Counted from the first letter of the stretch, positions 13,900 to 63,704 are shown. The stretch is DNA of 64,000 nt from Alphaproteobacteria bacterium (GCA_964291215.2 OZ219790.1:384001-448000); one strand, 5' to 3'. The notes: generated by a model from the sequence alone, not told the origin. Made by a program: numbers and translations.

Positions 13900-14632
13900 T
13901 TCCATAGTGAAGTGCAACACATGATGGGCTGTAGCCATGTGTTTTTAGACGCATGATGTTGCGGAGCGGTAGCGGCGAGATTTCCTGTACAAGATGAAGG
14001 GAGCTTGTTCATGTCCAAAGGCTACCGTCACCTACGAAGAGCGATGCCAGATTGAGGCAGAAAAGCGGTCTTTCACAAGGTGCGATTGCTCGGCAGCTGG
14101 GCCGTGACCGAATTTTCCGGGAGATCAAGCGCAACACCGGGGGACGGGGTTACCGTCACAAGCAGGCGCAAAGGATGGCAGAAACGCAGGGCAGCCTCGT
14201 CTGTTTCCTGGCGGTTAACGCCTCAACGATGGGTTGAAGCTCAGAAAAAGCTGCGGGAGGGCCCCGAGCAGCGGCCGTTTTCGACTGGAGGGCCGCCCAG
14301 TGGGTCGGCAACGGATCTATGATCGCATTCATGAAGATCGGAGAGCCGGGGGCGTCTTGTGGAAGAAGCTTCGGCGGCGCGGCAAGAAGCCGAACTGGAA
14401 GGGCGGATGCCATTCTGGCCGGGTGGACATTTCCGAGCGCCCTGCAGTCGTTGAGGCAAAGGAACGGATCGGCGACTGGGAGCCATCATCGGCAAAGCTC
14501 ACAGTGGAGCTGTCGTGTCGCTGGTTGATCGTGCCACGAAATACACCTTGCTGGGTGGACAGAAAGACCGCAGACACGGTCGGTTCGGTCGTGATCCGCC
14601 TGCTCGGCTCTGGTGCGCTATTGGTCACCAAT
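13900..14632 (+). mobile_element. IS30-family element copy 1, truncated and degraded
   Basis: Left end TTCCATAGTGAAGTGCAACA. Fragments MSKGYRH, REIKRN and ISERPAVVEAKERIGDWE; multiple frameshifts. Confidence 0.85.
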
Positions 14633-15558
14633 GTTGCGGGATATTCCTAATCGTATATAAACGCTGATATTACGGATTTTTCCAGCCCTCCTGAAAATCA
14701 AACCTCTTTCCAGATAGCGGTCCGAGACCGGACCGATCCGAAATGGGGCGTTGCCGGCTCGCGCATGCCGGTAAACGGTCCGTCGCCCGTCGCGCGCGTG
14801 AAACGCCGTCGAGTTGTTCGGCGAGCGGACGGGCAAGCGGCGGTCGGCCGTACATCCGCGGACACCGGTCCGAATGCGCCGGGCGGCAATCGTGTGGCGG
14901 CCGTGAACTTCGGGGGTGCGCGCATCCGGCGTGTCCGCGGGCTGGCGCGCATGTCCGGGGCGATGGAAATCCCCTGACTGATTCCTTTGCAAGACAGGGG
15001 GCGGCCTCCAGAGTGGCGCCGGTTGCCGGTTCGCTGCGGGCGGCGCCGGAAAGGACCGGGACCTGGAGGAGAGCGGGATGGGCGCGATCGAACCGGAATT
15101 CTATGCTCGTGTAGGTGACGGTCACAAAAGGCGCTTATTTGCTGGCGTTGCGCTTTTTTGTTGAGCGCGCCGAGGATTGTGATGGTGGCGCCGCGGCATT
15201 TGCGACGGGGGCCAGGGACGTAAGGAGGGCGTAGCCCGACTGGAGTCGCCGGCCCCCGTTGCGTTGAGATTTTCGCCTGCCTGAGGGAGGGGATGTGCTG
15301 GCGACCGCAGCGAGGGTCGCCGGGCTGCGCGAGGGGGTAGACTGGGGCTGCTGAGAACGATGCGGCGCCGGCCCCGTCTGCTTGGTGGCAACGACCGGCG
15401 CCCCCCCGAGCCCCCAAAAATTGCACCCGGCCCGATCATCAAACGCTCCAGACCCGCCCGGGGCAGCGGAAACCACCAGACAACTATCGTCAGCGCTTCC
15501 CCAAGCGACCAAAAAGAACCCAAAAAAATCAGCTCGCCGATCAGGGATACAACCCCTG

Positions 15559-16612
15559 TTCCATAGTGAAGTGCAACACATGATGGGCTGTGGCCATGTG
15601 TTTTTAGACGCATGATGTTGCGGAGCGGTAGTGGCGAGAGTTCCTGTACAAGATGAAGGGGGCTTGTTCATGTCCAAAGGCTACCGTCACCTGCGAAGAG
15701 CGATGCCAGATTGAGGCAGAAAAGCGGTCTTTCACAAGGTGCGATTGCTCGGCAGCCGGGCCGTGACCGAATTTTCCGGGAGATCAAGCGCAACACCGGG
15801 GGACGGGGTTACCGTCACAAGCAGGCGCAAAGGATGGCAGAAACGCAGGGCAGCCTCGTCTGTTTCCTGGCGGTTGACGCCTCGGGTTGAAGCTCAGGAA
15901 AAGCTGCGGGAGGGTTCCGAGCAGCGGCCGTTTTCGACTGGAGGGCCGTGAACGGATCCATGATCGCCGAAGACCGGAGAGCCGGGGGCGTCTTGTGGAA
16001 GAAGCTTCGGCGGCGCGGCAAGAAGCCGAACTGGAAGGGCGGATGCCATTCCGGCCGGGTGGACAGAAAGACACGGTCGGTTCGGTCATGATCCGCCTGC
16101 TCGGCTCTGGTGCGCTATTGGTCCACACAATCACAACGGCAAGGAGTTCGCAGACCACAGCCGTGTCGCACTTGACGCAGATTTCTTCTTCGCCTTTCCA
16201 TTCCCGGGAGCGCGGCTTGAATGAGCATACCAACGGCCTGGTGCGGGAGTACTTCCCGAAGGGCACGGACTTTCGCGCGACATGCAACGAAGATGTTCAG
16301 AAGGTACAGGATCGGCTCAACACTCGGAAAGTCCCGGGATCGCCGACGGAGGTAATCTTGAAGTGAAACCGCCCTGACCATCTGCGTTCCGAAGCCGCAA
16401 CGTGCAGCAGGGTCCATGCCGCGCGACGGCGAAACAGTGGCTTGAAGCCGACAAAGGCGTTGCATAAGCTCGATGTTGAAGGAACTGAAGCTGTTCCCGG
16501 GCGGAATCGAGAGGGACAGAGGGGGAAAATTTGTGCAACATCTGGACCTCATCTCCGTTCGGGCTACGCCCCTCACTGCGATGAGGGCCGGATGTTGCAC
16601 TTCAGACTGGAA
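15559..16612 (+). mobile_element. IS30-family element copy 2, both ends present, internally deleted
   Basis: Near-identical to copy 1. Contains ERGLNEHTNGLVREYFPKGTDF; right IR TGTTGCACTTCAGACTGGAA ends at 16612. Confidence 0.88.
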
Positions 16613-16744
16613 GTGGGGCAACAAAAAATTCAGGCTCATCCCGATTACGGCAATGCGGCCGAAGGATGCCGCTGAAGGCCGGCGTAGCGCTGTGGAGAGA
16701 ACGGGACTAGGGTTGGCCATTCGCTTCGATGGATGAGGCTGGCA

Positions 16745-19700
16745 ATGTCCGACGAGGCCCCTGCCCATGTGAAATGCTGTCTCGACGATCTCGCAGCCCG
16801 GTTGTGGGCGAACAAGGCTGCCGTGATGGTCGGCGCGGGGTTCAGCCTGAATGCGAGTTCGGAATTCCCGATCTGGCAGAAGCTGGGGGACCGGTTCTAC
16901 GAAAGAATTCACGGATGTTCTCCGGGAGATGACGCCAGGTATCTGGACATTCTCAAATTGGCCGGGCAGGTCCAGGCCATGTTCGGGCGACCTGCCCTGG
17001 ACGACCTGCTCCGTCAGGCCATCCCCGACCGGCATCCGCCATCGCTGTTACATAGCCGGTTGCTGGGCTTGCCCTGGAAGGATGTGTTCACGACGAACTA
17101 CGACACGCTCCTGGAGCGGGCGTTGCCGGCCGTACCGCTCAAGCATTACACCGTCGTCACCACGGAGAAGGAAATCCCGGATGCGGAGGGGGCGAGGATC
17201 GTCAAGCTGCACGGCAGCTTCCCGGAGGGGCCGTTCATCATCACCGAGGAGGACTATCGCCGATATCCTCTCGACCACGATCCGTTTGTAAACACGGTTC
17301 GCCAGGCCCTGCTTGAGAACAAGCTATGCCTAGTCGGCTTTTCGGCGGACGACCCGAACTTCCTGCAATGGCTCGGCTGGATGCGCGACCATATCGGGAG
17401 GAAGGACGCGCTCGGGATTTATCTTGTCGCACTCGGTCGCCTTGGTGAGGCAGACAACCAGCTGCTCTGCGACCGGGGCATTGTCCCGATCGACCTGTCG
17501 TGGATCGCGCCGGGCCACGAAAAACGCGAAGAAGAAGCGTTGAACTGGCTCCTGAAGGAACTTGAGGAGCGCAAGCCGCGGGTCTCGGAATGGCCAAGGG
17601 TGTCGCCGGAAGAGCAGCCTTGGTTACGGCAGAGCGATCCCCACAGGTACGGCGAAGTCGTGGAGGAATGGCGCCGACAACGCCTCGACTACCCGGGCTG
17701 GGTGGTGGCGCCGGCAGAAGGGCGACTGCAACTTTGGCTCCACACCGAAAACTGGCTGTCGCATCTGTCCGGATTGTCGGGAGCGGAACGACAAGCGCTG
17801 GAGCCGGGCCTGGACCTGGACCTGGCGTTCGAGCTGGCGTGGCGCCTAGACCGGTGCCTTATGCCGCTCAGGGTGCCGACGGTGGGCGACCTGTCGTCGT
17901 TTCTGGAAGAGGTTGAGCACAAATACGGCAACGCTTCGGCGGAGTTTCTGGAAGAGGTTGGCAGGGAGACAACCTGTGTAGTCGCCGCCGTCTTCGAAGT
18001 CCGGCTATGGCTGATGCGGCACTATCGTGAGCAGGGCCTGCATGACGAATGGGAGGCGGTAAGGAGGAGGCTCGAGGCAAGCCTCAACCTCAACGCCATA
18101 ACGCTCGAATACAGGGCCCGGTTCCGGCTTGAGACAGCGTTGCAGGCGCTGTTCCGTTTCGACCCGGAGGAAGCCAGGCAGCTGCTGGCCGACGAGTGGC
18201 CAGACAACGATGCCACGCCCTTCCTGGACACAAACCGCACCGTCCTGCTGGCAGAGTTGCAGGGGGATAAGGACGCCCGCCCGGCTCTTGAATCGAGCCT
18301 TGCGACCATCCGTCGACAGCAGCGCCAGAACCGGGGCGCCGACGACTACACGCTCGTCTCGCAGGAGTCAGTGGTAATGCTTCATTACCAGATGCTCGAC
18401 TCCGGCCTGCTGACGGTGGAAGAGGATTCGGAGCAACCCAGCGGCATCGACCTGCGGGACCTGACGGAGCGGCAGAACGAGCTGGTCCGATACAACTGCG
18501 CGCCGCATCGCGAGGTGGAATTGTTGTCCGCGCATGTCCGGTCTGCTCCGCCGACTCCTCCTTGGAGCACGAGGGTAGAGACCCCTGATTTCGATACCGG
18601 CCTTGTATTCAGAAACTACCGCTTCGGCCCCGATGAAGAGGCGCTTTCGGCCTACAGGCTGCTGCGGATGTACGAAGACCTCGGCATGCCCTACCGCATT
18701 GGATACACAACGTTCGTTGGCAGGTGGCTCGAGGGCGCAGTGCGTCGCATGGGCATGCAGTCGCCGCACTGGGCATTGGTGGCCATCGCCCGCCTGGGCA
18801 GCGAGAGAGCCGCAGACAGCCTGTTCGACCGTGAGTATCTCGCTGGCCTGACGCAAACCGAAGTCGATAGGCATTGCGACGCTTACCTAAAGGCGCTGGA
18901 CCGCATAGTGTCCATGTTCGAAGGAACGGCTCCGTCCGGCGACGGAATTCTCGAGCCGCTCGCGCGTACGCTCCCGGAGGTGTTTTCGCGCCTCTGCTGC
19001 AAGTGCTCACCAGAATACCGAGAGTGCCTGGTGGAAATGCTCGGTCGGATCTACGGCCTGCCGCCCAGATGGAGGCTGGTGTTCAACATCCCCCGGTTTG
19101 TTCATCGTCTTCTCGAAAGCATGTCGGCAGTGGAGCTGGCGCGGGCAGCGCCGACGTTGATCGGGCTCCCGCAGCCGTTACCGATGGGGCCTGGCGGAGG
19201 GATTTCGGTTGGGGAACACGTTCACCCGGTATTGTTGGTGAATCTGCCTGAACCGGTTCGGCCAGGAGCACTCGGCATACAGCCCGGCAAGGTCGACGAA
19301 TTGCTAGATCGGATGTCGTGCAGCACCTCCAAGGCCGAGCGGGACTGGGCGGCAGCGCCGCTTGTCTGGCTGCACGAGAAAGACCAGCTGGACGAAGAAC
19401 AGTCCAAACGCCTCGGGAACTTGGTGTGGGACGGCGTGGAAGCGCCGGAAGTGCCGGTGGTGCCTGGATACCCCGACTTCATGTGTCTGAGATTGCCTCA
19501 CCCCGCCGACATCGACCCTGAGCCGCTCGTGAAGCAGCGCTTGAGGTCGAAAATTCCACATTGGGGACGCACCGTCCCGGACAACTCCATGAACGAGCTA
19601 CGCAACTCGGCGTTTTGGGTCAAATGGACCCGTCCGGAGGCGAAGGAGCTGCTTGCGGAAGCCTCGAACTGGTGGCGGAGCAACAAGCACGGGACGCATG

Positions 19701-20416
19701 ACTCCCAGCCGGATCCGTTTGTCGGTTCAGTTGCTGAACACACTCATAAGGTAATTTCTGGAGGCGTTGACGCCCTTTCAGCCGTATTTGCCCGCGTCCC
19801 CGCAGCAGTCGACAACGACAATCTGGCAGATGCGCTACGGACGTTCCTTGCGGACCTAGAGGGAGACGGCATCCCTGCATTGAGGCTCGAAGCGGCGGCC
19901 TTGAAGGTCGTGCCCGAAATGCTGGAACGGGTGATCGGGCGAGTGAAGGCCGCGTTGTCTGACACCGAGCGCGGCGTGATAGTCGATGCGCTGTCTGCGA
20001 CGGAACTTCTGGCGGCGCATACGCTGCCGGAGGACAGGCGCGAGACATTTTCCGCAGTGGAGACGACGCTTGCCGATGGTATCTGGTGGCGCCACCGTCC
20101 AGCGCTTGCCGCGAGGCTGCGCTATACGGGGAGCCTGGTCAGGAGGCTGCCCTGGTTCCTGCCCAGGGAGAGAGAATGCGGTCTGCTGGCAGGCCTCGGT
20201 CATATCTCCGAAGAAACCGATCAGAACCGCGTCAGGGGTAACGATGGGGACGAACTGATCCCGACCCGGGCCTCGGCCGCGGCCCTGGCATCGGCGTTGG
20301 CTGAGCGCTACAGCGCGTTGGGGAAGGAGGAGCCGGGATCGATCAGGCGCTGGCGGGCGATCTGTAGCGACTCCAGTGAATTCGTAGAGGTCCGCAATGC
20401 GTGGACAGCGCTCTAA
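16745..20416 (+). CDS. Defence-associated sirtuin, Dsr1-like (N-terminal SIR2 NADase plus long helical region)
   Basis: VMVGAGFS, FTTNYD, KLHGS and GFSADDPNF motifs; ~1220 aa ending EFVEVRNAW. Intact. Confidence 0.82.
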   Translation: MSDEAPAHVKCCLDDLAARLWANKAAVMVGAGFSLNASSEFPIWQKLGDRFYERIHGCSPGDDARYLDILKLAGQVQAMFGRPALDDLLRQAIPDRHPPSLLHSRLLGLPWKDVFTTNYDTLLERALPAVPLKHYTVVTTEKEIPDAEGARIVKLHGSFPEGPFIITEEDYRRYPLDHDPFVNTVRQALLENKLCLVGFSADDPNFLQWLGWMRDHIGRKDALGIYLVALGRLGEADNQLLCDRGIVPIDLSWIAPGHEKREEEALNWLLKELEERKPRVSEWPRVSPEEQPWLRQSDPHRYGEVVEEWRRQRLDYPGWVVAPAEGRLQLWLHTENWLSHLSGLSGAERQALEPGLDLDLAFELAWRLDRCLMPLRVPTVGDLSSFLEEVEHKYGNASAEFLEEVGRETTCVVAAVFEVRLWLMRHYREQGLHDEWEAVRRRLEASLNLNAITLEYRARFRLETALQALFRFDPEEARQLLADEWPDNDATPFLDTNRTVLLAELQGDKDARPALESSLATIRRQQRQNRGADDYTLVSQESVVMLHYQMLDSGLLTVEEDSEQPSGIDLRDLTERQNELVRYNCAPHREVELLSAHVRSAPPTPPWSTRVETPDFDTGLVFRNYRFGPDEEALSAYRLLRMYEDLGMPYRIGYTTFVGRWLEGAVRRMGMQSPHWALVAIARLGSERAADSLFDREYLAGLTQTEVDRHCDAYLKALDRIVSMFEGTAPSGDGILEPLARTLPEVFSRLCCKCSPEYRECLVEMLGRIYGLPPRWRLVFNIPRFVHRLLESMSAVELARAAPTLIGLPQPLPMGPGGGISVGEHVHPVLLVNLPEPVRPGALGIQPGKVDELLDRMSCSTSKAERDWAAAPLVWLHEKDQLDEEQSKRLGNLVWDGVEAPEVPVVPGYPDFMCLRLPHPADIDPEPLVKQRLRSKIPHWGRTVPDNSMNELRNSAFWVKWTRPEAKELLAEASNWWRSNKHGTHDSQPDPFVGSVAEHTHKVISGGVDALSAVFARVPAAVDNDNLADALRTFLADLEGDGIPALRLEAAALKVVPEMLERVIGRVKAALSDTERGVIVDALSATELLAAHTLPEDRRETFSAVETTLADGIWWRHRPALAARLRYTGSLVRRLPWFLPRERECGLLAGLGHISEETDQNRVRGNDGDELIPTRASAAALASALAERYSALGKEEPGSIRRWRAICSDSSEFVEVRNAWTAL

Positions 20417-24231: not shown

Positions 24232-25687
24232 ATTTTCCTTCTCACAATTCCGTCTCGTGACCGCGCCGGCTCATTGTTCGAAAATTGTCCCGGGGTATCT
24301 ACTCACCCCTAGTTGGGTTCTGATTGGTCGTGGTGCTCGTTGATGATGTCTGCGGCTTTTCCGTCGAGGGCGATCTGGGTTGCGACGTGATGATTGTAGC
24401 CGAGTGCGGCCATGGAGGTGAGGTAGCTTGAGCCCCGGCACCATGCTTTTGCGTGGAGCGGAAGCATCCGGACACCTTGAGCTTGACCTTTGCCATCCTG
24501 ATCTTCTGCTCTCCGGCATTGTTGGTGAAGCTGACGTCGGGGTCGTCTATGAAGCGCAGGTTTTCGTGTTTCACGAGACGTTCGTGCAGGTTGTGTGCGT
24601 CGGACTTTGCTATGCGTCCACGTTTTCCTTTCGTCGGGATGTCGGGCAGTTCCTTGGCGCCCTGAGTGAGGATGGTGCGGTAGCGCTTGTGCACGGCCCG
24701 GCGGTCGGCCTCGTTCAGGGTTTTGGATGCGCTCTTGTTGACCTTGTGGCAGACCTCGCGGAGCAGGCTCTTCATCAGTCGCGCCCAGCGGTAGCCGTTG
24801 GATTCGACGACAAAGGTCAGTTCGCGCAGCAGGTGGCTGCCGCACAGCTGGTGGCTACACTGGCCCATGTACGAGGCCCAGCAGTCGTGGACCAGGACGC
24901 CCCTGTAGCACGGGATGATGCCGATCTCTTGCCTCTCGGCCGCGCTTGCGGTGCGGGAACTTGCACGTCAGGGTTCCGTCGGTGACCACATGGAGCCACT
25001 TGCCGTTGATCCGAAATCGTCGACATCGGGCGTTGCAGGAGGTGCGCCACGGCGGCCTCCTCCCATGACGCGAGCGCATCGTGAAAGCGCCGGACATAGC
25101 TGAGGCAGGTTACCTCGGAGAGCTTGATGCCGGAGATCGCCTGCACGAGCGCGACGGCACGGCGCAGGGACAGCATCTGGGCGACCAGCAGGTTGATGAC
25201 GAGGGCCTGGATGCCGATGCCGTACTGCACGGGATGTTGTCGGGGAACCGGCCCCGGGCCTTGCACTTCGGGCATTCCTTGATCTCGGCGCGGCGCTCGA
25301 CGACCTCGAACACGATGTCGTAGAGGACGCGGCGCTCCCGATCGACGGGGCCGTCGATGTCGGCGCCGCAGGCGTCGCAAGCATCGACCGCGACCGTCTC
25401 CTCGACGATGATCTTGCGCAGGTTGTCGCCCATCTGCTGGTTTGGCTTCGGGCCCTTGCCGTTGCTCCCGGCACGCTCTCGTCTTTGTCCGTCTGTGACG
25501 GCGGCAGACCGGAGTTCCGGCTCGTGCGTGGTCTTCTCCAGAAGGACGACGATGAGGATGTCGAGCAGGATGACGAAGACGCGGATCACGGCCTCTTTCG
25601 GCACCTTGCCGGCCGCACGCAGCGCCGCGGTCCGGGTCTTGGCCGCTTCGAACTCCTCGCGCAGCGACGCCGCGTTGACCGTCGCCA

Positions 25688-25840
25688 TCACCCGGCCTCG
25701 ACGGTCATGATCGTCGCGAGCATCGCCTGGCGCTCGCCCGGCGGCATCTTCCGGTACTCCGCTGCCCGGCCTTGCGCTTCATCAGCGCGCCGCCTCCGAT
25801 GGCACAGCCCGCTCGTCGCCTTCGATCCAAAGTAGCTCAC
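25688..25840 (-). pseudogene. Internally deleted passenger gene, resembles N6-adenine methyltransferase termini
   Basis: SYFGSKATSGLC is joined directly to YRKMPPGERQAMLATIMTVEAG, immediately upstream of tnpC. Family assignment from recall only. Confidence 0.45.
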
Positions 25841-25876
25841 TGCCGGTCCCCGTCGTTCTCGATAACCACCACTAAA

Positions 25877-27739
25877 CCGAAGTTCCAGCACTGATCAGAC
25901 GTATCATTATGAATGTATTGACGTTTGAAAAAATCAGGTGTGTCGCTACTGGGAACGCTACAAGCGTACGCCGAGGTAGTCCAGGGCCTTTTTCTGGAGC
26001 GGCGTGGGCCGCGTGGTGACCTGGAAGGGTTGGGCGCCCGCAAGGCGGGGCGCCACGGTGTTGCGGGTGGCGAGATTGTCGATGAGGGTGGAGAAGCTGT
26101 GCCACCCCCGGGTGTCCTCTTGGTTGCCGCCTTGGCCCGGGCGCTCGCCGAGACCTCTGCTGGCGCCACGACGGAAGGGCGCCTTCGGCATCCTCGTCGT
26201 CGAACAGCATGGGCTTCAGTCGCATGTGCCATTCGATGTAGTAGGCGAGCATGCACAGGAAGACATGGGCCCGGGGCTCGGTGCGGTGGTAGACGGGACG
26301 GACCTTCAGATCCACGGTCTTCAGGCTGCGGAAGGCCCGTTCCACCGAACTCAACCGCTTGTAGGCGCGCACCGTGCCGGGACCGTCGAGCTCGCTCTGC
26401 GGCAGGCTGGTGCGGATCACGTAGAGGCCGTCGAGCCTAGCCTCGGCAGCGATCGCAGCCTCATCGCGCCCATAGGTGAAGACACCGTCATCGTCGATGG
26501 ACCACGTGAAGTGCTTCGCCATCTTGTACTTGCCGATGACCTTCCGCTCCCCGATCTTCCCGGCACCCTTGAGACGGCGCTTGTCGCGCCGTGTCGCTGC
26601 TGCGATCGGTTCAAGCAGGGCCTCGGTGGCCTCAAGCAGTTCCTGGCGCTTGCGAGCCCGATCTTCGGCCAGCAGCGGGTTGCAGCACACCATGAGGCGT
26701 TCGCCGGGATACGCATCGCTGGTGATCTCCACCAGGTCCCTCTCGTCGAAGAGCGACATCTCGACGTCGCCGGCCTCCACAAGGGCGCGGATGGCCGGTC
26801 CCCTCAAGGCGCTGATCCAGTCCAGGCCCGCAGGCTTCACCTCCTCGCGTATGCGCGCCTCGGTCAGCATCCCCCGGTCTCCCACCAGCACCACCTTCGC
26901 CAGGGAGAAGCGCTCCTGCAGCGTGGTGATCTGTGACGCAACCGTCCCGGGGTCCGCCGTGTTGCCGGGGAACACTTCCACCGACACCGGACAGCCGTCC
27001 CGATCGCACAGAAGGCCGGCTGCAGCTTGCCCTTCTTGCCGTCCCGGGAATGACCCCGTTTGGCCAAGGGACACCCCTCCATCCACACTGAAGTCAGGTC
27101 ATAGAGCACCAGGCAGCCCTCTTCGAGGCGCCGCTTCGCCAGGGACCGCTCGATCCTCTCCTGACGCTCCAAGAGCCAGGCGCCGTAGAGGGCGTCCTCG
27201 TCCATCTCCGCATCGAGGATCTCGCCCAGGGTGGAGACCGCTGTGGCCTCGGCCAGACCCCGTGCCGTGGCCAGCTTCGAAGCGGGCTCGAGGATGCGTG
27301 CCACGATCATGGCCAGGACCTGATCGCGCGAGGGCTTCGGGTCGATCAACCTGTCCAGCTTCTTCAGGGTTCCCAGCACCCCGGCGACATGGGGAAGGGA
27401 GCGGACGATGTCGAAGGCATCGTCACCGAGGGGTTCGTTCTTCAAGAGGCGCCGCAGGGTCTCGACCTTCTCCATGGGCCAGGAGGAGAGATTGGCGATG
27501 GTGCGCTTCTTGACCTTGCCGTTCTCGCGCCATCCTTCGCGCAGGAGGACGGCGGGGGGTGAGTTGCGGTTGGGGACGATGTCTACGTACATGGCAACCT
27601 ATATAGGGATGAAAGCTCAATTTATCAAGGGAAAAATTCATAATTACATGGGAACATTTTCACGTCATCATCGCCTTATCTTGTCAACACAATCAAGCAG
27701 TTGTCGTGATTTTTCTGCTGAAATCGGCGGGAACTTCGG
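25877..27739 (-). mobile_element. IS1634-family element copy A (frameshifted transposase)
   Basis: IRs CCGAAGTTCC/GGAACTTCGG; 6-bp TSD ACTAAA. Motifs LYDLTS, VGDRGM and VERAFRSLK. Confidence 0.92.
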
Positions 27740-28695: not shown

Positions 28696-29973
28696 TAGTA
28701 GTCTGACATTATTGGATTGACGGATATAGTGACTTCAGTTTCGTCCGGGCATCCTTCGTCGTGAAACGCCAGTCGACAGTGACATCGGCCGCATTGCGGC
28801 GCTCGACCCACGCCACGGTCTCCCGCAGCATGGTGTCGCGGTCGGGAATGCGTCGCCGAAGGCATTGCCGCGACAGCGCGCCGCTCTCGATCTCGGCCAT
28901 GTTGAGCCAGCTTCCATGCTTCGGCGTATAGCGAAACTCGAACCGTTTTCGCACCCGCCTCTTCGGGCTCGAAGGCTTCATACAGTGACTGTGCGTGTTC
29001 AGATTGTCCAGCACGATCTTCCTGTCGGGGAAATGGTCGTCGGCAAGCTCCCGGATGAAGTGCGCCCAGTCCCGCGGCGGTCGGTGACTTTCACCGTGCG
29101 CCAGTTCTCGTTGGGCGCAAAGGCCATGAAGAGGTTGGCCGTACCGTTGCGCTCATATTCATAGTCGACCACCTCCGGCTGACCGGGAGACGGGGGATGC
29201 GGGTTTCCTTCGTCTGCTGCCGGCTGGTTTCATCCATGCACACCAGCACCTCGTCCTTGGCAAAGTCCCGCTGATAAATGTCAAGCACATCCGCCGCCAC
29301 GAACTGTGCGCTCCGGTGCGGTGGAATGCACCAGTACTGCTTCAGCCACGGCTTGATCTCCTTTTTTTTAGCGTCTTCCTGACCGTCTCTTCCGAAATGC
29401 TCTCGACGATCTCCATCTCCACCAGACGGCCGGCAAGCAGCTTCAGCGTCCAGCGGGCACAGCCCTCGGGCGGAGACGAACAGGGCGATCAGCTTCGCCT
29501 CCATCGCCCCGTCCAGCCGTTTCGGCCGACGGTTCACCTGCTCCTTGCGGCTGAGGGCGGCCTCCAGCCCCTCCAGGACGCAGCACTTGCGCAAGCGCTC
29601 AACCGTCGCCGTGCCGATGCCCAGCCCTTGCGCAATGTCGGCATCGACAAGCGCCGTCGCGCCCCTCAGCATCAGAACCTGTGCCCGGCGCCGACGCCAG
29701 GCGGCCCCGGTGCCGTCGACGATCGCCTTCAGATCCTGGCGCTCCTGCGCTGAAAGGGTCACGCGGTAGAGCTTCCTACCCCGAGAGTTGGCCATATACG
29801 TTGCTCCTGTCATTGCGCCGCTCCCGTTGTCCGGACCTGCACATGGGGCTGCGGCTGCCTGCCTGTTCTGTATCTTGCCCGTGTGGATATCGACACTGTC
29901 CGGATTCCAACAGATGCCGACACGGAAATACTACCCACCAAAAACCATCAATACAATGCCGGTGGGACTACTA
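28696..29973 (-). mobile_element. IS630-family element, degraded
   Basis: Ends TAGTAGTC/GACTACTA in CTAG context. Motifs VCMDE, LDNLNTH and YTPKHGSWLNMAE. Confidence 0.88.
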
Positions 29974-30263: not shown

Positions 30264-32102
30264 CCGAAGTTCCCGCCGATTTCAGCAGAAAAATCACGAC
30301 AACTGCTTGATTGTGTTGACAAAATAAGGCGATGATGACGTGAAAATGTTCCCATGTAATTATGAATTTTTCCCTTGATACATTGAGCTTTCATCCCTAT
30401 ATAGGTTGCCATGTACGTAGACATCGTCCCCAACCGCAACTCACCCCCCGCCGTCCTCCTGCGCGAAGGATGGCGCGAGAACGGCAAGGTCAAGAAGCGC
30501 ACCATCGCCAATCTCTCCTCCTGGCCCATGGAGAAGGTCGAGACCCTGCGGCGCCTCTTGAAGAACAAACCCCTCGGTGACGATGCCTTCGACATCGTCC
30601 GCTCCCTTCCCCATGTCGCCGCGGTGCTGGGAACCCTGAAGAAGCTGGACAGGCTGATCGATCCGAAGCCCTCGCGCGATCAGGTCCTGGCCATGATCGT
30701 GGCACGCATCCTCGAGCCGGCCTCGAAGCTGGCCACGGCTAGGGGGCTGGCCGAGGCCACAGCGGTCTCTACCCTGGGCGAGATCCTCGATGCGGAGATG
30801 GACGAGGACGCCCTCTACGGCGCCTGGCTCCTGGAGCGTCAGGAGAGGATCGAGCGGTCCCTGGCGAAGCGGCGCCTCGAAGAGGGCTGCCTGGTGCTCT
30901 ATGACCTGACTTCAGTGTGGATGGAGGGGTGTCCCTTGGCCAAACGGGGTCATTCCCGGGACGGCAAGAAGGGCAAGCTGCAGATCGAGTTCGGCCTCCT
31001 GTGCGATCGGGACGGCTGTCCAGTGTCGGTGGAAGTGTTCCCCGGCAACACGGCGGACCCCGGGACGGTTGCGTCACAGATCACCACGCTGCAGGAGCGC
31101 TTCTCCCTTGCGAAGGTGGTGCTGGTGGGAGACCGGGGGATGCTGACCGAGGCGCGGATACGCGAGGAGGTGAAGCCCGCAGGCCTGGACTGGATCAGCG
31201 CCTTGAGGGGCATCCGCGCCCTTGTGGAGGCCGGCGACATCGAGATGTCGCTCTTCGACGAGAGGGACCTGGTGGAGATCACCAGCGATGCGTATCCCGG
31301 CGAACGCCTCTGCCGCAACCCCCTGCTGGCCGAGGACCGGAAGCGCCAGGAACTGCTCGAGGCCACCGAGGCCCTGCTTGAACCGATCGCAGCAGCGACA
31401 CGGCGCGACAAGCGCCGTCTCAAGGGTGCCGGGAAGATCGGGGAGCGGAAGGTCATCGGCAAGTACAAGATGGCGAAGCACTTCACGTGGTCCATCGACG
31501 ACGACGGTGTCTTCACCTATGGGCGCGATGAGGCTGCCATCGCCGCCGAGGCCAGGCTCGACGGCCTCTACGTGATCCGCACCAGCCTGCCGCAGAGCGA
31601 GCTCGACGGTCCCGGCGCGGTGCGCGCCTACAAGCGGTTGAGTTCGGTGGAACGGGCCTTCCGCAGCCTGAAGACCGTGGATCTGAAGGTCCGTCCCCAC
31701 CGCCCCGGGCCCATGTCTTCCTGTGCATGCTCGCCTACTACATCGAATGGCACATGCGACTGAAGCCCATGCTGTTCGACGACGAGGATGCCGAAGGCGC
31801 CCTTCCGTCGTGGCGCCAGCAGAGGTCTCGGCGAGCGCCCGGGCCAAGGCGGCAACCAAGAGGACACCCGGGGGTGGCACAGCTTCTCCACCCTCATCGA
31901 CGATCTCGCCACCCGCAACACCGTGGCGCCCCGCCTTGCGGGCGCCCAACCCTTCCAGGTCACCACGCGGCCCACGCCGCTCCAGAAAAAGGCCCTGGAC
32001 TACCTCGGCGTACGCTTGTAGCGTTCCCAGTAGCGACACACCCGATTTTTTCAAACGTCAATACATTCATAATGATACGTCTGATCGGTGCTGGAACTTC
32101 GG
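30264..32102 (+). mobile_element. IS1634-family element copy B
   Basis: Same IRs as copy A; own 6-bp TSD CTTAAC. ORF starts at 30411 and frameshifts at ~31703. Confidence 0.92.
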
Positions 32103-32135
32103 CTTAACGTTGGACGAGGTCAGGGTGTTTGAAGT

Positions 32136-43624: not shown

Positions 43625-44032
43625 TCAACATGGAGATTCGATAGGACCGGAGTTTATCCGAGTGGTCAGCGGGCAAATGTCCCAATCAAGGACGCGACCA
43701 AGCGAGAAGGCGCGGAATCGGCCTTTTCCTTCCTTGCCGTGCAGAATTCGCTTCTGTCCGTTCGAATGAAATCGCGATTGTTTCCACGATCCTCCCAGAC
43801 GGGAGAACAACCCCTCGGCTTCGGCAAAGGGAATGCCATGTCCGTTGTCGGCGACTCTGATGGCCTTGAGCCCGTCGAGGTCCTCTTCAACCAGCGTCAC
43901 GTCGATATGCGTGGCATCCGCATCGACTGCGTTCCAGATCAGCTCGGCCAGGGCAAGGAGGGGTTTTCGGGTCTGCGCGACCCGTTCCAGATGGTCGTCC
44001 TGAACCTGTATCTCAAAGGTCCTGGCGGTCAT
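43625..44032 (-). pseudogene. GHKL/HATPase ATPase N-terminal fragment
   Basis: [14 protein letters not shown] and GKEGKGRF motifs. ATGA-coupled to hsdR; truncated after ~120 aa. Confidence 0.8.
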
Positions 44033-47000
44033 GCTGCCCACTTCGCCGATAACGCTTCGGCCTGTTGCAGAACCGTCTGCACGGCGGCGTCCTGGAGGTC
44101 GGGCGGATACCCGTGCTTGCGGAGGATGCGCTTGACCAGAACCCGCATCCGGGCGCGGGCCGGCCCGCGGTGCTGCCAGTCCACGGAGGCTTTGCTTTTC
44201 AGCCCGTTCAGCAATTCCCGGGCGATGACGCGAAGGTGATCGTTGCCCATCACCTCGACCGCGCTCTCGTTCTGGGCCAGGGCATCGTAGAAGGCGATTT
44301 CCTCGGGGCTGAGACCCTCCTCCTCGCCGCGCCGGTGTGCGGCGCGGATGTCCTTCGCAAGCCCGATCAGTTCCTGAAGGACCTCGGCCGTCGTGAGGGC
44401 GTTGCCGTGGTAGCGGGCGATCGCTTCTTCCAGCCTCCGGGAGAAGGCCCGGGTCTGCACGACGTTGACCCGGCTTCGCGAGCGAAGCTCCCCGTTGATG
44501 AGCTTGCGCAGCGCCTCCAATGCGAGGTTCTTCTTCTCCATCTCCCGTATCTCGGCCAGGAACTCGTCGGAAAGGATGGAAATGTCCGGCGTATCCAGCC
44601 CGGCGGCTGCGAGAATGTCGACGATCTCGGTCGAAACGACCGCGCGGCTGACGATCTGCTGAACCGCCAGGTCCCGCTCCGCGGAGGACTTGCCGGCGCC
44701 GGGCGCGCTTTTGGCGAGCGCTGCACGGACGGTCTGGAAGAAGCCCACCTCGTCGCGGATTTCCCGGGCTTCGTCGCTGGCGGCCGCGAGCGCGAACGCC
44801 CTGGTGAGCGCCAGCACGGCGTCGTTGAAGCGGCGCCGGGCGTGCTTCTTGCCTTCTCCGGTCGATTCCCGGGCCGCCTCGCGGTGCTGCATGTCGAGGA
44901 CCCACTCGATGGCGCCGGCCAGCGCCGCGAGCCGCTCCTGCGGCGACCCGACAAGGCCGTTGCGGAAGTCGAAACCATGGAACATGGCGCTCACGATCTC
45001 GTACTTCTCCAGCATGACCGCGACGGCTTCGGCCTCGTCGATGCCGGCGTGCCTTCGGTCGTCGCGCGAGTACTGGCCGAGGGCGGACTTCAGGTTCTGC
45101 GCGATGCCGATGTAGTCCACGATCAGACCGGCGGGCTTGTCGCGGAACACGCGGTTGACGCGGGCGATGGCCTGCATGAGCCCGTGCCCCCGCATGGGCT
45201 TGTCGATGTACATCGTGTGCAGGCGCGTCGAAGCCGGTCAGCCACATGTCCCGCACGATCACCAGCCTGAGCGGGTCGTCCGCGTCCTTGATCCGCTTGG
45301 CGAGCAGCTCCCGGCGGGCCTTGCCTCCGATGTGGCGTTGCCAATGCGTCGGGTCCGACGCCGCGCCGGTCATGACGATCTTGATGACGCCGCTTTCGTC
45401 GTCGTCGCTGTGCCAGTCCCGGCGCAGCCTGACGATCTCGCCGTAGAGCGCAACGCAGATGCGGCGGCTCATGCAGACGATCATGGCCTTGCCGTCCATG
45501 CCGGCAATACGACTCTCGAAATGGTCGACCAGATCCCGGGCAACCAGGCGCAGGCGCTTCTCCGTCCCGACGACGGCCTCGACGTTCGCCAATCGTCTCT
45601 TGAGCCGTTCCTGCTCGCCTTCGGCCTCGTCCTCGATCAGTTCGGCGACCTCGTCGTCGAGCGCCGGCTTCTCACCTTCGTCGAGTTCGATGCGGACGAG
45701 GCGGCTCTCGTAGTAGATCGGTACGGTCGCGCCGTCTTCGACGCCGCGGTTGATGTCGTAGATGTCGATGTAATTGCCGAACACGGAAGGCGTGTTCACA
45801 TCCTCCCTTTCGATCGGCGTGCCGGTGAAGCCGATGAAGGAAGCGTTCGGCAGGGCGTCGCGCAGATATTTGGCGAAGCCGTAGGAAATCTCTCCGGTCT
45901 TGCGGGCCATCCTGGCGCGGAAACCGTACTGGCTGCGGTGCGCCTCGTCCGCGATCACGACGATGTTGCGGCGGTCGGAGAGGGCCGGGTATTCGATCTC
46001 GCCGGCCTCGGGTGCGAACTTCTGGAGGGTGGTGAACACCACGCCGCCGGACGGACGCGTCAGAGCCTGTCGCAGGTCCTCCCGGCTGTCGGCCTGCCGC
46101 GGGGTCTGGCGGAGCAGGTCGCGGCACATGGAGAACGTGCCGAACAACTGGTCGTCGAGGTCGTTGCGGTCGGTGAGGACCACGAGGGTCGGGTTCTCCA
46201 TCGCCGGGTGGGCGATGACCTGTCCGGCGTAGAACGCCATCAGCAGGCTCTTGCCGGAGCCTTGCGTGTGCCAGATCACGCCGATACGGCGATCGCCTGC
46301 CGGGCTCGTCGCGGTGATCGTGCGCTCGATCGCATGGCGTACGGCGTGAAACTGGTGATAGCCGGCCACGATCTTGACCAGTCCCGCGCCCGTGTCCCCG
46401 AACACGGTGAAGTCCCGGATCAGGGCCAGGAACCGGTTCTTCTCGAACACGCCTTCGACGACGGTTTCGATCTCGGGGGCGCCCTTCGATGCGACGGCGG
46501 CGCCGTCCACGGTGCGCCAGGGCATGAACCGCTCAAGATTGGCGGTCAGCGATCCGAACCGCGCCTGAAGGCCGTCCGAAGTCATGAGAGCGGCATTGGT
46601 GCGGAACAGGGAAGGTATCTCCTCCTTGTAGGTCCGGAGCTGGTTGAACGCCCCTTCGAGGGTGGCGTTTTCGTCGCCGGGGTTCTTCATCTCGATCACG
46701 GCCAGCGGCAGGCCATTGAGGAACAGCACGATGTCGGGGCGGCGATTGTGTTCGTGCTCGATCACCGTGAACTGGTTCACCGCCAGCCAGTCGTTGGCCT
46801 CGATGTCGTCGAAATCGATCAGACGGGCAGCGTCGCCGCCGATGCTGCCGTCCTCCCGCGCCACCTCGACCGGCACGCCCGCGATCAGGTAGCGGTGCAG
46901 GCGGCGGTTCTCCTCGACGAGGGAGGGAGTCTCCGTCTGCCGCACCTTGCGGAGCACCTCCTCCAGCGCCGCGGCGGGCAGGTCCGGGTTGAGGCGGGCG

Positions 47001-47164
47001 AGCGCCTCGCGGAACCGGCCGGCCAGCAGCACCTCGTCGTAGCTGCCCCGCTCCGGCGCCGGGCCTTCCGGGCCCATGTCCGGCCCATGAACCACGGCAT
47101 AGCCCAGTCCGGCGAGCCATGCGAGAGCCGCGTCTTCGACATCCGATTCGGAAAGACGGCTCAT
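44029..47164 (-). pseudogene. hsdR: Type I restriction subunit R, one frameshift at ~45222
   Basis: RPD..EMK nuclease, [16 protein letters not shown] and FTGTP motifs. MWLTGFDA and [10 protein letters not shown] are out of frame. Confidence 0.92.
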
Positions 47165-48150
47165 TCGCCGGATTCGCCCAGAAGATTGACGATAAGGCGA
47201 ATTATGAGATCCTTGTTCGACGGTGCGCTTTCGGCGATCAACAGGGTGAGCGCCGTCAACCCCCGGGGGTCGAGCCGGTGCGCGATTCCCTCCTGTGTCA
47301 GATAGAGCAGGAACAGCAGGGCGCCGATGCGCTTGTTGCCGTCGGTGAACGGGTGATCCTTGACCAGAAAATAGAGCAGGTTGGCCGCCTTGTCCGCGGC
47401 GCTGCGGTAAAGGGGTTCGCCGAACATGGTCTGCTCCACATTGCCGAGAATGGCTTTCAGGGCTTCGCCGCGCCGGGTGCCGAACAGCGATGTGGCTTCG
47501 CCCTTTGCCGCAAGATCGCTCCTGAAAGCGTCGATCGCGGCGACGGCGGTGTCGAGGCCGAGCGCGCTGGTGGCCGGCTTCGCGCCGGCCGGCGCCTTGA
47601 GGCGGTCCTCGTCGTATTCGAGCAGCACGCGCCACGTGTCGGCGTATCTTGTGATCAGGTCCAGTACGGACTGGCCCGTTTCGTCGACGAGCGCTTGGTT
47701 CCTGAGCGTCCGGGCGAGCAAACCCAGGGTTTGGCGCGCCTCGTCGAGGCCCCGCTCGGCAAGCCGCCGCTCATTCATCGTGTAACCGCTGACGAGATGC
47801 TCGCGCAAGGTGCGGGTGGCCCAGATACGGAACTGTGTGCCGCGCAGGGACTTCACCCTGTAGCCGACCGAGATGATCATGTCGAGGTTGTAGTGATCCA
47901 CCTCCCTGGATACCCTTCGCCCGCCCTCGGATCGAACCTGTGCAAAATTTGCACAGGTTGACCCTGGGTCCAGCTCTTGTTCACGGTAGGCGTTGTGGAT
48001 GTGCCGGGCGATTACGGAACGATCCCGCCCGAACAGTTCCGCCATCTGCGGCCGGGTCAGCCAGACTGTCTCCCTGTCGAAACGCACGTCCACGCGCGCC
48101 TCGCCGTCCCCGGACTCGTAGACGATGACTTCGCCGCCGGGGGAGTTCAT
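47161..48150 (-). CDS. RhuM / Fic-DOC fusion protein
   Basis: [21 protein letters not shown] (RhuM) and HPFTDGNKR (Fic). Confidence 0.9.
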
Positions 48151-59547: not shown

Positions 59548-60728
59548 TAGTCATCTGAATCTAAAGTTCGTGGCATAAGTTTTGTTCGACGCGGAGACAG
59601 AAGCGCTTGACGGCGGCGAGGATTTCGTCAGCTGATTTGGTCCATTTGAAGGGCTTGGGATTTTCGTTGTGGGTTTCGATGAAGGCCCGGATGTCGGTTT
59701 CGAGTTGCAGGGTCGAGCGGCCGCGTTGCAACTGCTTGCGGGTCAGTTCGGCGAACCAGCGCTCGACCTGGTTGAGCCACGAGGCGGATGTCGGCGTGAA
59801 GTGGACGTGCCAGTGCGGCCGCCGGGCCAGCCAGGCTTTGACCGCGGCGGTCTTGTGGGTGGCGTAGTTGTCCATGACGATGTGGATGTCGAGCCCGTCC
59901 GGGACATTGCGGTCGATCACCTTGAGGAAGTCGAGGAACTCCCTGGCCCGGTGGCGGCGATAGCACTTGGCGATCACCGCACCGGTGGCGATGTCCAGCG
60001 CCGCGAACAGCGAGGTCGTGCCGTTGCGCTTGTAATCGTGGGTGCGCCGCTCAGGGATGCCGGGCAGCATCGGCAGGACCGGCTGGGTGCGGTCGAGGGC
60101 CTGGATCCGGCTCTTTTCGTCGACGCAGAGCACCAGCGCGCGGTCCGGCGGCGAGAGGTAGAGGCCGACAATGTCGCGGACCTTGTCCACGAAGTGCGGA
60201 TCGGCCGACAGCTTGAACGTCTCAGCCCGGTGCGGCTGCAGGCCGAAGGCGCCCCAGAGGCGCCAGATCGACGTGTGTGACAGCCCCGCCTCCTTCGCCA
60301 TCGAGCGCAGCGACCAGTGGGTCGCGTCCGCAGGCGTCGAGGTGAGCGTGCGCTCGATCACTTCCGCCACTTTCTCGTCCGCGATGCTCCGCGGGCGCCC
60401 CGGACGGGGCTCGTCCGAAAGCCCCTCGATGCGGTTCTTGACGAAACGCCTGCGCCACTTGCCGACGGTGTGCTCATGCATGCCGAGTTCTGCGGCTACC
60501 GCCTTGTTGCCCAGCCCGTCAGCGCAACGCAGGATCATGCGGCAGCGATCCGACAGCGAGCGCGCCACACGGTGACGCCGAACCTGCGCTTCCAGAAACG
60601 ACCGTTCCTCATCGCTCAAGACCAAGGCCGCCAGCGGCCGTCCCTTACCGCGCCCCATCAAGATGACCTCCTTTGTCTGACCCGGAAGACCATCTTACAA
60701 TGAACTCTACTTCAGTGCCAGATGACTA
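59548..60728 (-). mobile_element. IS630-family element, transposase 59561-60661
   Basis: Perfect IR TAGTCATCTG/CAGATGACTA. Motifs CVDEK, MDNYATH and SWLNQVERWF; RGRST appears to lack two residues. Confidence 0.92.
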
Positions 60729-60984: not shown

Positions 60985-61250
60985 TCAGGCGCGCCGCGGC
61001 CATGTACATCCTGATCGGCACCGCTAGGCTCAACAAGGCCGATCCTCAGGCTTGGCTCGTCGATGTGCCCGCCCGCATCGCCGGAACGCCGCAGAGCCGG
61101 CTCGACGGGCCCTTTCCCTGGAACTGGCGGGACGACCGGCAACCCGATCAGGGCGCATGGCCAAAGACCCTGCCTGGCGCTCCCCGATCAGCTCGACGTC
61201 CGCGACAAACTCAGATCTCTATACCCTGCGGTCTTCGGCGGATGCTTGCA
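60985..61250 (+). pseudogene. IS66 tnpC C-terminal remnant
   Basis: RAAAMYILIGTARLN..DPQAWL..PWNW. Confidence 0.75.
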
Positions 61251-62543
61251 TCCGATCGCTCCGGATCCCCGGTTCTGCCCCGAAGAGGAACCCCCTCCCC
61301 CTCTGGCGCAATTGGCTTTCCGGGACCCGGGAGCCCGGGCGTGGCAGCCGACACATCGCCGTGTTCCGCCTCGTCCGGCATTGGAGGCGCCTCCGCCCTG
61401 TATCCCATGGCGCGCGCGATGACGGCCGCGGCCTGCGCGGCGGCGTCCCGCAGCGCGCCGTCGTCGAGATGGGCGTAGATCGCGGTGGTCTCCCGCTTGC
61501 GGTGTCCGAGCAGCCGCCCGACGGTGGTGAGCCCGACGCCGTTCATGACGCCCTGCGAGGCCCAGGTGTGGCGGCAGTCGTGGATGCGAAGACCCGGAAG
61601 CCCCGCCTCGTCGCGTATGCCGACCCAGAAAGTATAGAGCCTTGCCGTCGTGAGGTTGTCGGGAAACACTCGCTCCCGGCCATCCGGTCGCGGCAGTTCC
61701 GCGATCAGCCTTGCCGCTTCCGGCCCCAGCCAGATGGTGCGCGGCCCGGTCTTGGAGTCTTCGATGCGCGCGCTCGCGCCGTCTCCGCCCAGCTCTCCGA
61801 TCTCGTCCCACCTGAGGTTGATGACTTCGGAGAGCCGCGCCCCGGTGAGCGTCAACAGCCGGATGGCCGCCACCGGCCAGGGATGCTGTTCCCGGTGGCG
61901 GTCGAGCACCGCGCCGAGACGCTCCAGCTCTTCGCGGCTGAGATAGCGCGCGACAGGCTTGCGGGGGTTCTTCACGATGTTGGCGCAGGCGTCGGGGACA
62001 TGCTCGCCGATGTCGCCCCACTGCCGGGCCGTCCCGAGCATGGCGCGGAGTATCTCGAAGGCGCGGTTGGCGGCGCCTGTCCGCGCTGGCGGCGTCGAAC
62101 CATGCCGAGACCCGCGCATGGTCGATGGCGTCGAGCCGGAGCCTGCCGAAATGCGGCATCAGGCGGTTCTTCAGGTAGATGTCGAAGGTCTCGAGCGAGG
62201 ACGGCTTCCAGCGGTGTTTCCGCCGCGAGCGGTAACGGGCGGCGAAGTCCCGGAACAGCGGCGCCTTCTCCTTGCGCGGCGGCGTCACGTCCTCGCCGCC
62301 CCACAGGCGGGCGAGCACGGCCGCGCCTTCCCGGCGGGCCGCGTCGAGAGGCAGTTCGGGGAAGCGCCCGAGGGTGATCTTGCGCATGCGTCCCCGGACG
62401 CGGGTCTGGACGATCCAGGACCGGACGCCGGAGGGCTGTATCCGCACCCCGAAATGCGCCAGCAGATTGTCCCACAGGGTGTATTCCCGTTCCGCCGGCT
62501 TGGCGACGGCCTTCACGGTGAGCCGGTGCCTGCGGCCGCTCAT
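61211..62543 (-). pseudogene. Tyrosine integrase 2 (arm-binding domain type), frameshifted at ~62078
   Basis: FGVRI..ITLGRFP..L..AR arm domain; TGAR, SKTG, HDCRH, LGH and IYAH motifs. Confidence 0.88.
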
Positions 62544-63704
62544 CGCCCGCTCTCCTTCCCGGTCATGGCCTCGTGGACGATGCCGGAGATGCGCCCGGCC
62601 GCCTCGCGGACATGCTCGTCGGCGAGATGGGCGTAGCGTTCGGTGGAGGCGGTATCGGCATGGCCGAGCAGGCGGCCGACGGTGTAGAGGTCGAGGCCGC
62701 TCATCACGGCATGGGAGGCGAAGGTATGTCGGCAGTCGTGGATGCGCACATCGTCCAGCCCGGCGAGACCGCGCAGCTTCTGCCAGCGCAGGCCGAGGTC
62801 GGTCATCGGGCCGTCGCCCTTCCCGTTCGGGAAGACGAAGCGTCCCTCGCGCGGCAGGCCAGTCAGGACGGCCCGCGGGGGAAGCTGGAGCGCCCGGTCT
62901 TGGAGTCCGGCAACACCGCGCGGGTGTCCCGTATCCAGTCCCATTGCAGGCCGGCGATCTCGGACGACCGGGCGCCGGTGAACAGCAGCAGGCGGCCTGC
63001 CGGTCCTCGGCATGGTCGAGGACGAAGCCGAGGCGCTTCAACTCGTCCAGGGACAGGAACCGCTCGCGCGGCGCCGTCCTGTAGCGCCGCATGTTGCGGC
63101 AGGGGTTGGAGCCCTGCGGGCGAAGGTCCCATAGCTCCGCCTGGCGCATCATCACCGAGAGCACCGGCAGGGTCCGGTTGGCGCTGCCGGGGGTTCCGCT
63201 GAGGGAATCGAACCAGCGCCGCACATCGGCGCGGTCGATCTTCGCGACGGGCATCGCGCCGAAGAAGGGCACGAGGCGGCGCTCGATCAGATGGGCGTTG
63301 GCCTTCCTCGTGGAGGGTTTCCAGCGCCGCCCCTGGCGGCGCATGAAGTCGGCCGCGAAGTCGGCGAACAGCGGCCCGGTCTCGCGGTCGGCCCCGGCTT
63401 CGGCGATGGCGGCAAGGGCCTTCTCCCTCGCCTCGGCGGCGGTCATGTCGTCGGTCGTGCCGAGGATCGCCCTGGGCGCGCCGAACTGGCGTGAGGTCCA
63501 GACGAAGAAGGTCTTCGTCCCGGCGACGGTGAAGCCGAAGGCGGGCAGGTCCCTGACGGTCAGGCCGTATCCGGGTTTCTTCTCCCTGAAGGTGCGGCGG
63601 ACCGTCCGCTCGTTGATGGGGGCATGGATGCGCGTGTCTCCGTTGTCTGTTCCCTCGGGCGCCGTCCGTCCCGGGGGAACGGAACGGCGCTCCTGAACGG
63701 ACAA
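62540..63704 (-). pseudogene. Tyrosine integrase 1, multiply frameshifted
   Basis: TGAR, DSKTG, HDCRH, LGH and RYAH motifs; ATGA overlap with integrase 2. Start codon uncertain. Confidence 0.85.

Follow-up and report, generated by a model that had tools for sequence, protein, structure and literature searches.

The window, a 64,000-nucleotide stretch (C1:384001-448000) of the alphaproteobacterial genome here termed G000, contains insertion sequences (ISs) and other repeated genes that have repeatedly lost short segments of 5-7 nucleotides (nt), and these deletions are the subject of this report. The genome comprises 6.15 Mb in two contigs with a GC percentage of 64 and is 99% complete; repeats make up about 35% of it, and a permuted tmRNA together with the nearest named relatives places it among uncultured Alphaproteobacteria. 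An earlier note, made from the sequence of the window, had reported such gaps between copies of mobile elements and, by comparison with family consensus, in further genes. Contigs assembled from four other runs (X1-X4, all from one study) were used for comparison, and all results rest on assembled sequence. The elements and genes concerned are the following, with positions counted in the window.

6545..6555 (C1:390550), no strand assigned: single-copy 6-nt loss relative to congener G001, inside the metabolic cluster.
9019..9029 (C1:393024), no strand assigned: 6 nt of single-copy DNA lost relative to G001, at a place flanked by long open reading frames (ORFs) in the metabolic cluster.
13893..14626, plus strand: IS30-like copy 1, with the long alleles AACGAT (14225-14230) and CCGCAGA (14568-14574); the family label is that of the earlier note, and the extent is the part aligned to copy 2.
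15552..16123, plus strand: IS30-like copy 2, without five segments of 5-7 nt that copy 1 has.
16733..20416, plus strand: SIR2-domain gene (control), single copy, open frame, aligning without a gap to a 3,835-nt contig from run X1.
24300..25800, minus strand: decayed element of the IS66 family (DDE_Tnp_IS66 match), one of a very large number of copies, with about 14-18 segments of 5-7 nt missing relative to other copies.
25873..27739, minus strand: IS1634 copy A (label of the earlier note), 9 two-codon gaps and frameshifts relative to the intact transposase of congener G004, and a 7-bp target duplication.
28700..29900, minus strand: IS630-type remnant, without several segments of 5-7 nt that other copies in the genome have.
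30264..32106, plus strand: IS1634 copy B, 11 two-codon gaps relative to G004 and, compared with copy A, five losses of 6-7 nt.
32136..36789, minus strand: E2-ThiF-JAB-patatin fusion and neighbouring ORF (control), single copy, open frames.
43625..47635, minus strand: hsdR, frameshift at 45218-45222 with about 5 nt missing.
59561..60661, minus strand: IS630 transposase, one 6-nt loss at ~59720.
61188..63704, minus strand: two decayed integrase genes, with about seven segments of 5-7 nt missing that are present in other copies in the genome.

All seven copy-to-copy gaps of the earlier note were present, some displaced by 1-2 nt within microhomology. IS1634 copy B was without ACCGGC (~31211), ATGGTG (~31311), GCTCGC (~31341) and one 6-nt and one 7-nt piece around 31700, copy A was without 7 nt found at 30984-30990 of copy B, and the pair differed by 35 substitutions and 6 gaps over 1,874 columns. 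The letters of the two segments absent from IS30-like copy 2 were checked, and three additional 5-7 nt gaps were identified in that copy near 14295-14330. The gaps judged against consensus held as well, i.e. the hsdR frameshift at 45218-45222, the loss at ~59720 in IS630, those at ~62070-63630 in the integrases, and many in the IS66 remnant, the same indels of which recur in contigs of runs X1-X4. Two further G000 copies of hsdR break at the same residue as the copy in the window. This hsdR copy is also missing about 63 nt (21 codons) at ~46290-46335, which are present in homologues and in a contig of run X2. Of the metabolic and main defence genes described as intact, the SIR2 gene and the fusion have open frames, and 6-nt losses lie at ~6550 and ~9024 in the metabolic cluster.

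Four congeners were compared: G001 (~93% identical, 220 contigs) and the distant G002, G003 and G004 (one contig each). The alignment sample of G001 was about 0.87 Mb of its 5 Mb and provided 598 kb of aligned single-copy DNA with 43,947 substitutions. The repeat sample of G002 was of about 0.42 Mb, and those of G003 and G001, consisting of one and two repeat pairs, are uninformative on repeats. Within G000, repeat indels were counted without alignment, with 16 matching bases demanded on each side of an event. Between repeats, 4,304 indel events and 10,766 substitutions were obtained before filtering, and removal of low-complexity and long-microhomology rows left 3,003 clean indels, of which 1,815 were 5-7 nt long. 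The spectrum has its lower edge at 5 nt (1 nt, 393; 2 nt, 114; 3 nt, 49; 4 nt, 38; 5 nt, 375; 6 nt, 891; 7 nt, 549; 8 nt, 125; 9 nt, 79). The genome-wide length histogram, the check proposed in the earlier note, thus gave a 5-7 nt peak and no smooth decay from 1 nt, which bears out its suggestion of a specific process behind the narrow size class. In the available text of PMC6054270, the indels of bacterial pseudogenes follow a power law with an excess only at multiples of three (3n).

The supply of these deletions is genome-wide. In single-copy DNA, 5-7 nt were missing at 84 sites in G000 versus 3 in G001, and 1-3 nt indels were near-balanced (126 versus 100). When coding and non-coding DNA were separated by a crude gene caller, non-coding losses of 5-7 nt numbered 38 in G000 and 2 in G001, and in coding DNA it was mainly the 6-nt class that was retained (37 versus 1). 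The non-coding events correspond to about 0.012 deletions per lineage substitution (38 events; 6,598 substitutions, approximately half assigned to G000), and the genome-wide fixation rate of 5-10 nt deletions in the G000 lineage is low, ca. 0.01 per substitution. Against the intact IS1634 transposases of G004, the G000 copies had 8-11 two-codon gaps, when the outgroup had at most 3 gaps of any size. On the basis of the polarity of 84 to 3, the G004 transposase comparison and the hsdR frameshifts, the 5-7 nt events are lineage-specific deletions that occur at low rate even in single-copy DNA. The idea that single-copy DNA is spared did not survive, as the same size class was present there at about 1/20 of the high-copy load per substitution.

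Among IS copies the deletions are shared, and their frequencies are shifted in one direction. Seventeen IS family alignments of 12-50 copies each, with events kept under an 80% coverage rule, contained 333 gap events of 5-7 nt. Singletons numbered 18 versus 89 expected under neutrality, and with the gap taken as derived, 222 of the 333 were found in more than 50% of copies versus 57 expected, so that the neutral frequency spectrum was rejected (p about 1e-89). Sharing in both directions was observed for 262/333 of the 5-7 nt events and for 32/109 of the 1-4 nt events (p=2e-20). One remaining long allele was found at 53 events, and only two of these were tandem duplications. Both SNPs (single-nucleotide polymorphisms) and indels of 1-4 nt were mostly private to copies, with a minor frequency of ≤0.1 at 70% of 3,289 SNP sites. 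Across the 17 families, G/C minor alleles were common (>0.1) at 329 of 842 sites versus 529 of 2,094 for A/T minor alleles, an unpolarised excess that hints at a GC-ward drive.

The sharing is not nested. With exact junction words, and thus independently of alignment, all four haplotypes were present in 341/455 site pairs; the identical junction word was found in a median of 88% of carriers, with one breakpoint pair per site. Linkage between SNPs (r2) was 0.46 below 10 bp, 0.20 at 10-25 bp and 0.13 above 50 bp. Carrying a deletion depends on short homology: rare variants at 4-15 bp from the site amounted to 4.1 per kb in carriers versus 6.3 in non-carriers (p=1e-5), compared with 4.9 versus 5.4 at 51-200 bp, i.e. 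mismatches within ~15 bp go with not carrying the deletion.

The load of 5-7 nt deletions per substitution over six copy-number classes was 0.007, 0.014, 0.027, 0.07, 0.118 and 0.20, a 30-fold rise from two-copy repeats to families above 100 copies, and the load of 1-3 nt indels was flat (0.01-0.035). In families of more than 100 copies, 11,427 events of 5-7 nt stood against 145 of 8-10 nt. Relaxed selection, which the earlier note had held to expose the deletions, fails as an account, since single-copy non-coding DNA had about 0.012 versus 0.20 in these families and the copies share the same deletions. Closest among its proposals was a repeat-directed process, although the step seen here is spread from copy to copy. 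Per-copy loads were over-dispersed in some families, the deletion sites were somewhat evenly spaced, and a few sites had two overlapping alleles. In a young IS66-type family (~12 copies, >99.4% identical), 5-7 nt polymorphism was not yet found. Two copies of this family (C2:1612611-1612660 and C1:923283-923332) share a patch of 4 substitutions and a 3-nt gap, resembling SPDIR (short-patch double illegitimate recombination), and no donor for the patch was found in the G000 genome.

The size class is present in one distant congener and practically missing in another. In repeats of G002 (2,178 substitutions), 5-nt gaps numbered 50, 6-nt gaps 49 and 7-nt gaps 17, versus 20 of 1 nt, and repeats of G004 had a single 5-7 nt gap in 768 substitutions. 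The size mode is species-specific, and the upper edge in G002 (5-6 nt) differs from that in G000. In one G002 element (30 of 47 matches), most 5-6 nt gaps were still minor alleles, with sharing that was again mosaic; this has the look of an earlier stage. Segments in G002 started at ATC in 16/29 five-mers, a count inflated by unmerged near-duplicate rows. At the same places, the 5-7 nt alleles of G000 recurred in three to four of the other runs' contigs.

Microhomology of at least 3 nt flanked about 25% of events versus about 6% of controls, and was wholly lacking in about 30% of events. The deleted segment was centred on T-N-N-A (3.6-fold), each side losing ~3 ± 1 nt, and tended to start at ATC or GTC on either strand; (A/G)TC was 1.7-2.8-fold over control in G000, and the end motif had no element-strand bias (47 versus 46). 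Extruded hairpins were ruled out as a source, as neither complementarity nor stems were in excess. A centred 4-bp preference, one feature of type II topoisomerase sites, was present in the deleted segments; such sites are described as a 4-bp core with flanks of 10-11 bp GC periodicity (PMC6379681, available part). Periodic power at 10-11 bp was no higher than in shifted controls, which argues against gyrase, not against topo IV. The Escherichia coli TopoI motif, given as C at -4 from the cut in the accessible text of PMC9352719, fitted poorly, since it is the segment's 5′ end that the G000 motif follows. Target duplications of resident ISs were 8, 9-10, 3, 2 and 4 bp (CTAG) with an AT-rich or unrelated consensus, and none of the clear duplications in G000 was of 5-7 bp with (A/G)TC. 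Overhangs left by type I restriction are a conceivable source of deletions, for which no paper was found in the literature search.

Searches of G000 for Ku, ATP-dependent ligase, Argonaute/Piwi, type IB topoisomerase, RecT, NucS, UvdE, Y1 transposase and endonuclease VII gave no match over the cut-off; Ku and ATP-dependent ligase were not found in the four congeners either, and Piwi was found in none of the five genomes. The reading frames of MutS, MutL, RecA, RecF/O/R, UvrD and PolA are open in G000, and RecJ and XseA are intact. MutS, MutL, GyrA/ParC, GyrB/ParE, RecJ, XseA, RuvC and Cas1 were present in 5/5 genomes and do not discriminate among them, and no G000-specific change was found near the GyrA/ParC active sites. 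The x position of the GyrA motif HPHGD-x, which we take to be the quinolone-binding Ser83, is Gln in G000-G003 and Ser in G004, a difference unlinked to the deletions, since G001 shares the Gln. Reverse transcriptases occur in G000, G001 and G002, and not in G003 and G004, and so do not separate G000 from G001; the 19 matches in G000 are nearly all fragments, some with stops. The gene dprA, with a match over the cut-off in 11 of 12 relatives, was not found in G000; its loss as a cause is weakened by its presence in G002 and by the location of the G001 copy in an accessory stretch missing from G000. Nothing in G000 was matched by the E. coli queries recX, sbcD and comEC, which does not establish the absence of these genes. 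A relic of an AEP-TOTE primase-polymerase, of the type of the IS excision enhancer (IEE), lies at C2:1964090-1964197 (L340:1501-1608); it covers 35/230 profile positions, was found in G000 only among 13 genomes, and is too short to work.

Two CRISPR arrays lie beside cas1, at C1:574249-581182 (96 repeats of 36 bp) and C2:2068489-2069545 (17 repeats of 28 bp), and their repeats are regularly spaced though other repeats of G000 are eroded. The 95 and 16 spacers do not target ISs, and 6/111 had only 17-25 nt matches elsewhere. The machinery suggested in the earlier note was accordingly not borne out: Ku/LigD end joining and Argonaute were not found, the CRISPR spacers do not target the ISs, and mismatch repair is represented by intact MutS and MutL. 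The window itself carries a defence island (16733-56230) with the SIR2-domain protein, AbiEii, the E2-ThiF-JAB-patatin fusion, multi-copy type I restriction-modification genes, two nucleotidyltransferase ORFs and a second ThiF protein. The fusion and its neighbour (32136..36789) are, by their architecture, presumably related to the cyclic-oligonucleotide-based anti-phage signalling system (CBASS).

We consider it probable, at roughly 0.6, that the 5-7 nt deletions, shared as a mosaic, are spread by gene conversion that acts over short patches, favours the deletion and involves loops beyond the reach of mismatch repair. One copy would provide a short single strand that pairs with another copy through arms some 15 bp long. 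If such a donor carried point or 1-4 nt mismatches, it would be erased by MutS/MutL, and loops of at least 5 nt would escape; according to the available parts of two studies, MutS does not bind loops of more than 4 nt (PMC11754648) and bacterial repair declines between 5 and 8 nt (PMC2504288). The short allele would be favoured either as a short donor spends no length on the loop or as the loop is clipped. More copies would supply more new alleles and more donors, and high-copy families would ratchet shorter until their transposases are lost. The weak end preference, with the breakpoint just 5′ of ATC/GTC and the central T-N-N-A, presumably belongs to the spreading step.

Several points weigh against conversion of this kind. 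We infer the direction of the bias from donor geometry and from the behaviour of recombineering, and the sharp upper edge, differing in G002, suggests the ruler of an enzyme more than the physics of annealing. The excess of single-copy deletions in G000 (38 versus 2 non-coding losses) needs a second process, or drive between chromosomes or strains. The difference between carriers and non-carriers in nearby rare variants also fits protection by mismatches without templating. In a single process, the end motif would hardly be flat over IS allele frequency (0.26, 0.22, 0.23 and 0.30) and lacking from single-copy deletions, where it was not found (17/77 versus 14.7 expected, an underpowered sample). 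The effect of the replication strand on load was marginal (p=0.043, with uncertain strand calls), and no gene separating G000 and G002 from G001 and G004 was found among the families searched.

The end preference could also be that of a nuclease. A weakly specific dimeric enzyme might cut both strands 5′ of (A/G)TC, with a stagger of about 5-7 nt between the two cuts, after which rare end joining removes the overhangs; in repeats, the break would be repaired from a copy without the site, and the site-less allele would drive. The centred T-N-N-A with its symmetrical losses, the (A/G)TC starts in G000 and the ATC starts in G002, the events without microhomology and the species-specific size mode all suit such an enzyme. 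We nevertheless hold it to be a minority explanation, as motif strength fails to predict allele frequency, the motif was not found in single-copy deletions, G000 yielded none of the candidate ligases, nucleases, type IB topoisomerase, Y1 transposase or Argonaute listed above, and neither a gyrase-type 10-11 bp signal beyond controls nor a G000-specific GyrA/ParC active-site change was found. About equally tentative is a dedicated defence that senses copy number, a bacterial counterpart of fungal repeat-induced point mutation (RIP), with an uncharacterised (A/G)TC-preferring nuclease or loop enzyme that has a 5-7 nt ruler. If true, deletions would be created in and driven through any multicopy sequence, and IS families would be killed in proportion to their success. 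A host homology-sensing system by which every copy independently loses the same 5-7 nt, without template transfer, would likewise explain the strong copy-number dependence, the mosaic patterns, the somewhat even spacing of sites and the occurrence of a few sites with two overlapping alleles. This appears doubtful, however, given that each site has a single breakpoint pair although the motif is weak and sizes are mixed, and given the depletion of nearby rare variants in carriers below the distant baseline. Moreover, no guide system is at hand, with Piwi lacking and only the 17-25 nt matches of six spacers, and SNPs are also mosaic over short ranges, hence conversion does occur.

Explanations that dispense with any drive fare worse. 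Ordinary deletion bias in a mutator lineage, with damaged masters transposed and neutral conversion shuffling the alleles, would suit the over-dispersed loads and the microhomology, which is enriched as in the pseudogene sets of PMC6054270 (available part). It is already largely refuted by the rejection of the neutral spectrum, and we regard it as quite improbable: faster neutral conversion should lower indel diversity relative to SNPs, yet the load rises 30-fold with copy number, and published bacterial spectra are power laws with an excess only at 3n. An artefact of assembly or polishing in repeats, the alternative already raised in the earlier note, has in its favour the exclusive use of assembled contigs and the origin of all four runs in one study. 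It is very unlikely in view of the same alleles in three to four other runs, the polarised deletions in single-copy DNA, the true losses relative to protein outgroups, and the contrast between single-contig genomes (1 gap per 768 substitutions in G004, 116 per 2,178 in G002). Least credible of all are footprints left as ISs insert and excise, in which case a deletion would be as long as the target duplication and IEE might assist. The repeat-rich genome and the relic confined to G000 would agree with them, but no clear resident duplication is of 5-7 bp with (A/G)TC, the relic is a fragment, and footprints would be private to one copy, not shared.

Gene conversion is known to occur among IS copies, and its known biased forms include a GC-biased one and, in meiosis, an indel-biased one. 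The G000 process is filed here as a variety of biased gene conversion, in which an allele class rises by non-reciprocal homologous transfer and the frequency spectrum shifts without benefit; mosaic haplotypes (341/455), r2 decay within ~25 bp and 222/333 events above 50% were all found. It differs in acting between dispersed IS copies of one genome, on 5-7 nt deletions, in tracts of ~10-25 bp, and with a load that scales with copy number. Fungal RIP introduces new C-to-T changes by a dedicated methyltransferase-like protein. As in RIP, repeated DNA is preferentially damaged and transposons are inactivated as copies rise, the damage in G000 depending 30-fold on repetition; unlike in RIP, the lesions are deletions and apparently copied, as identical breakpoints favour, and no dedicated gene was found.

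In SPDIR, templated microindels arise when short single strands, for which donors can be intragenomic, pair over short homologies and become incorporated at the fork, at a very rare rate (above 1e-13 per cell and locus) that is raised by loss of RecA, RecJ/ExoX, RecFOR or DprA; their size is variable, and the available text leaves the direction unstated (10.1101/2023.11.22.568220). On that account, the annealing step resembles the mechanism proposed for G000, whereas the G000 process is pervasive, size-restricted and directional, the SPDIR suppressors RecA, RecFOR and RecJ are intact with dprA not found, and in place of ectopic patches there are clean 5-7 nt losses. Pseudogene deletion bias, as far as described in the available part of PMC6054270, is similar in the excess of deletions over insertions, the common microhomology flanks and the lack of Ku/LigD; in G000, however, 5 and 7 nt are far above 2-4 nt and the events are common to copies. 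The IEE likewise makes microhomology-linked deletions tied to ISs without Ku, but in the accessible text it removes whole elements of ~1 kb (10.1101/2023.06.07.543989), and G000 has only a short relic. The defining features of Ku/LigD end joining, guide-directed self-targeting and transposition footprints were not found in G000.

Searches of the open-access literature turned up no precedent for deletions of 5-7 nt being driven, as a class, between IS copies in bacteria. Bacterial deletion bias is usually treated as a power-law mutation spectrum; here the bias would come from conversion and not from mutation alone. Transposase trees and copy ages derived from such genomes are unreliable. The process is measurable in any complete genome by a simple bubble count, and the contrast of G000 and G002 with G001 and G004 offers a natural comparison for finding the genes involved. 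For the IS families themselves it would be a self-limiting brake on expansion, a larger family being eroded more quickly, and it would help to explain how IS-swollen genomes shed their elements.

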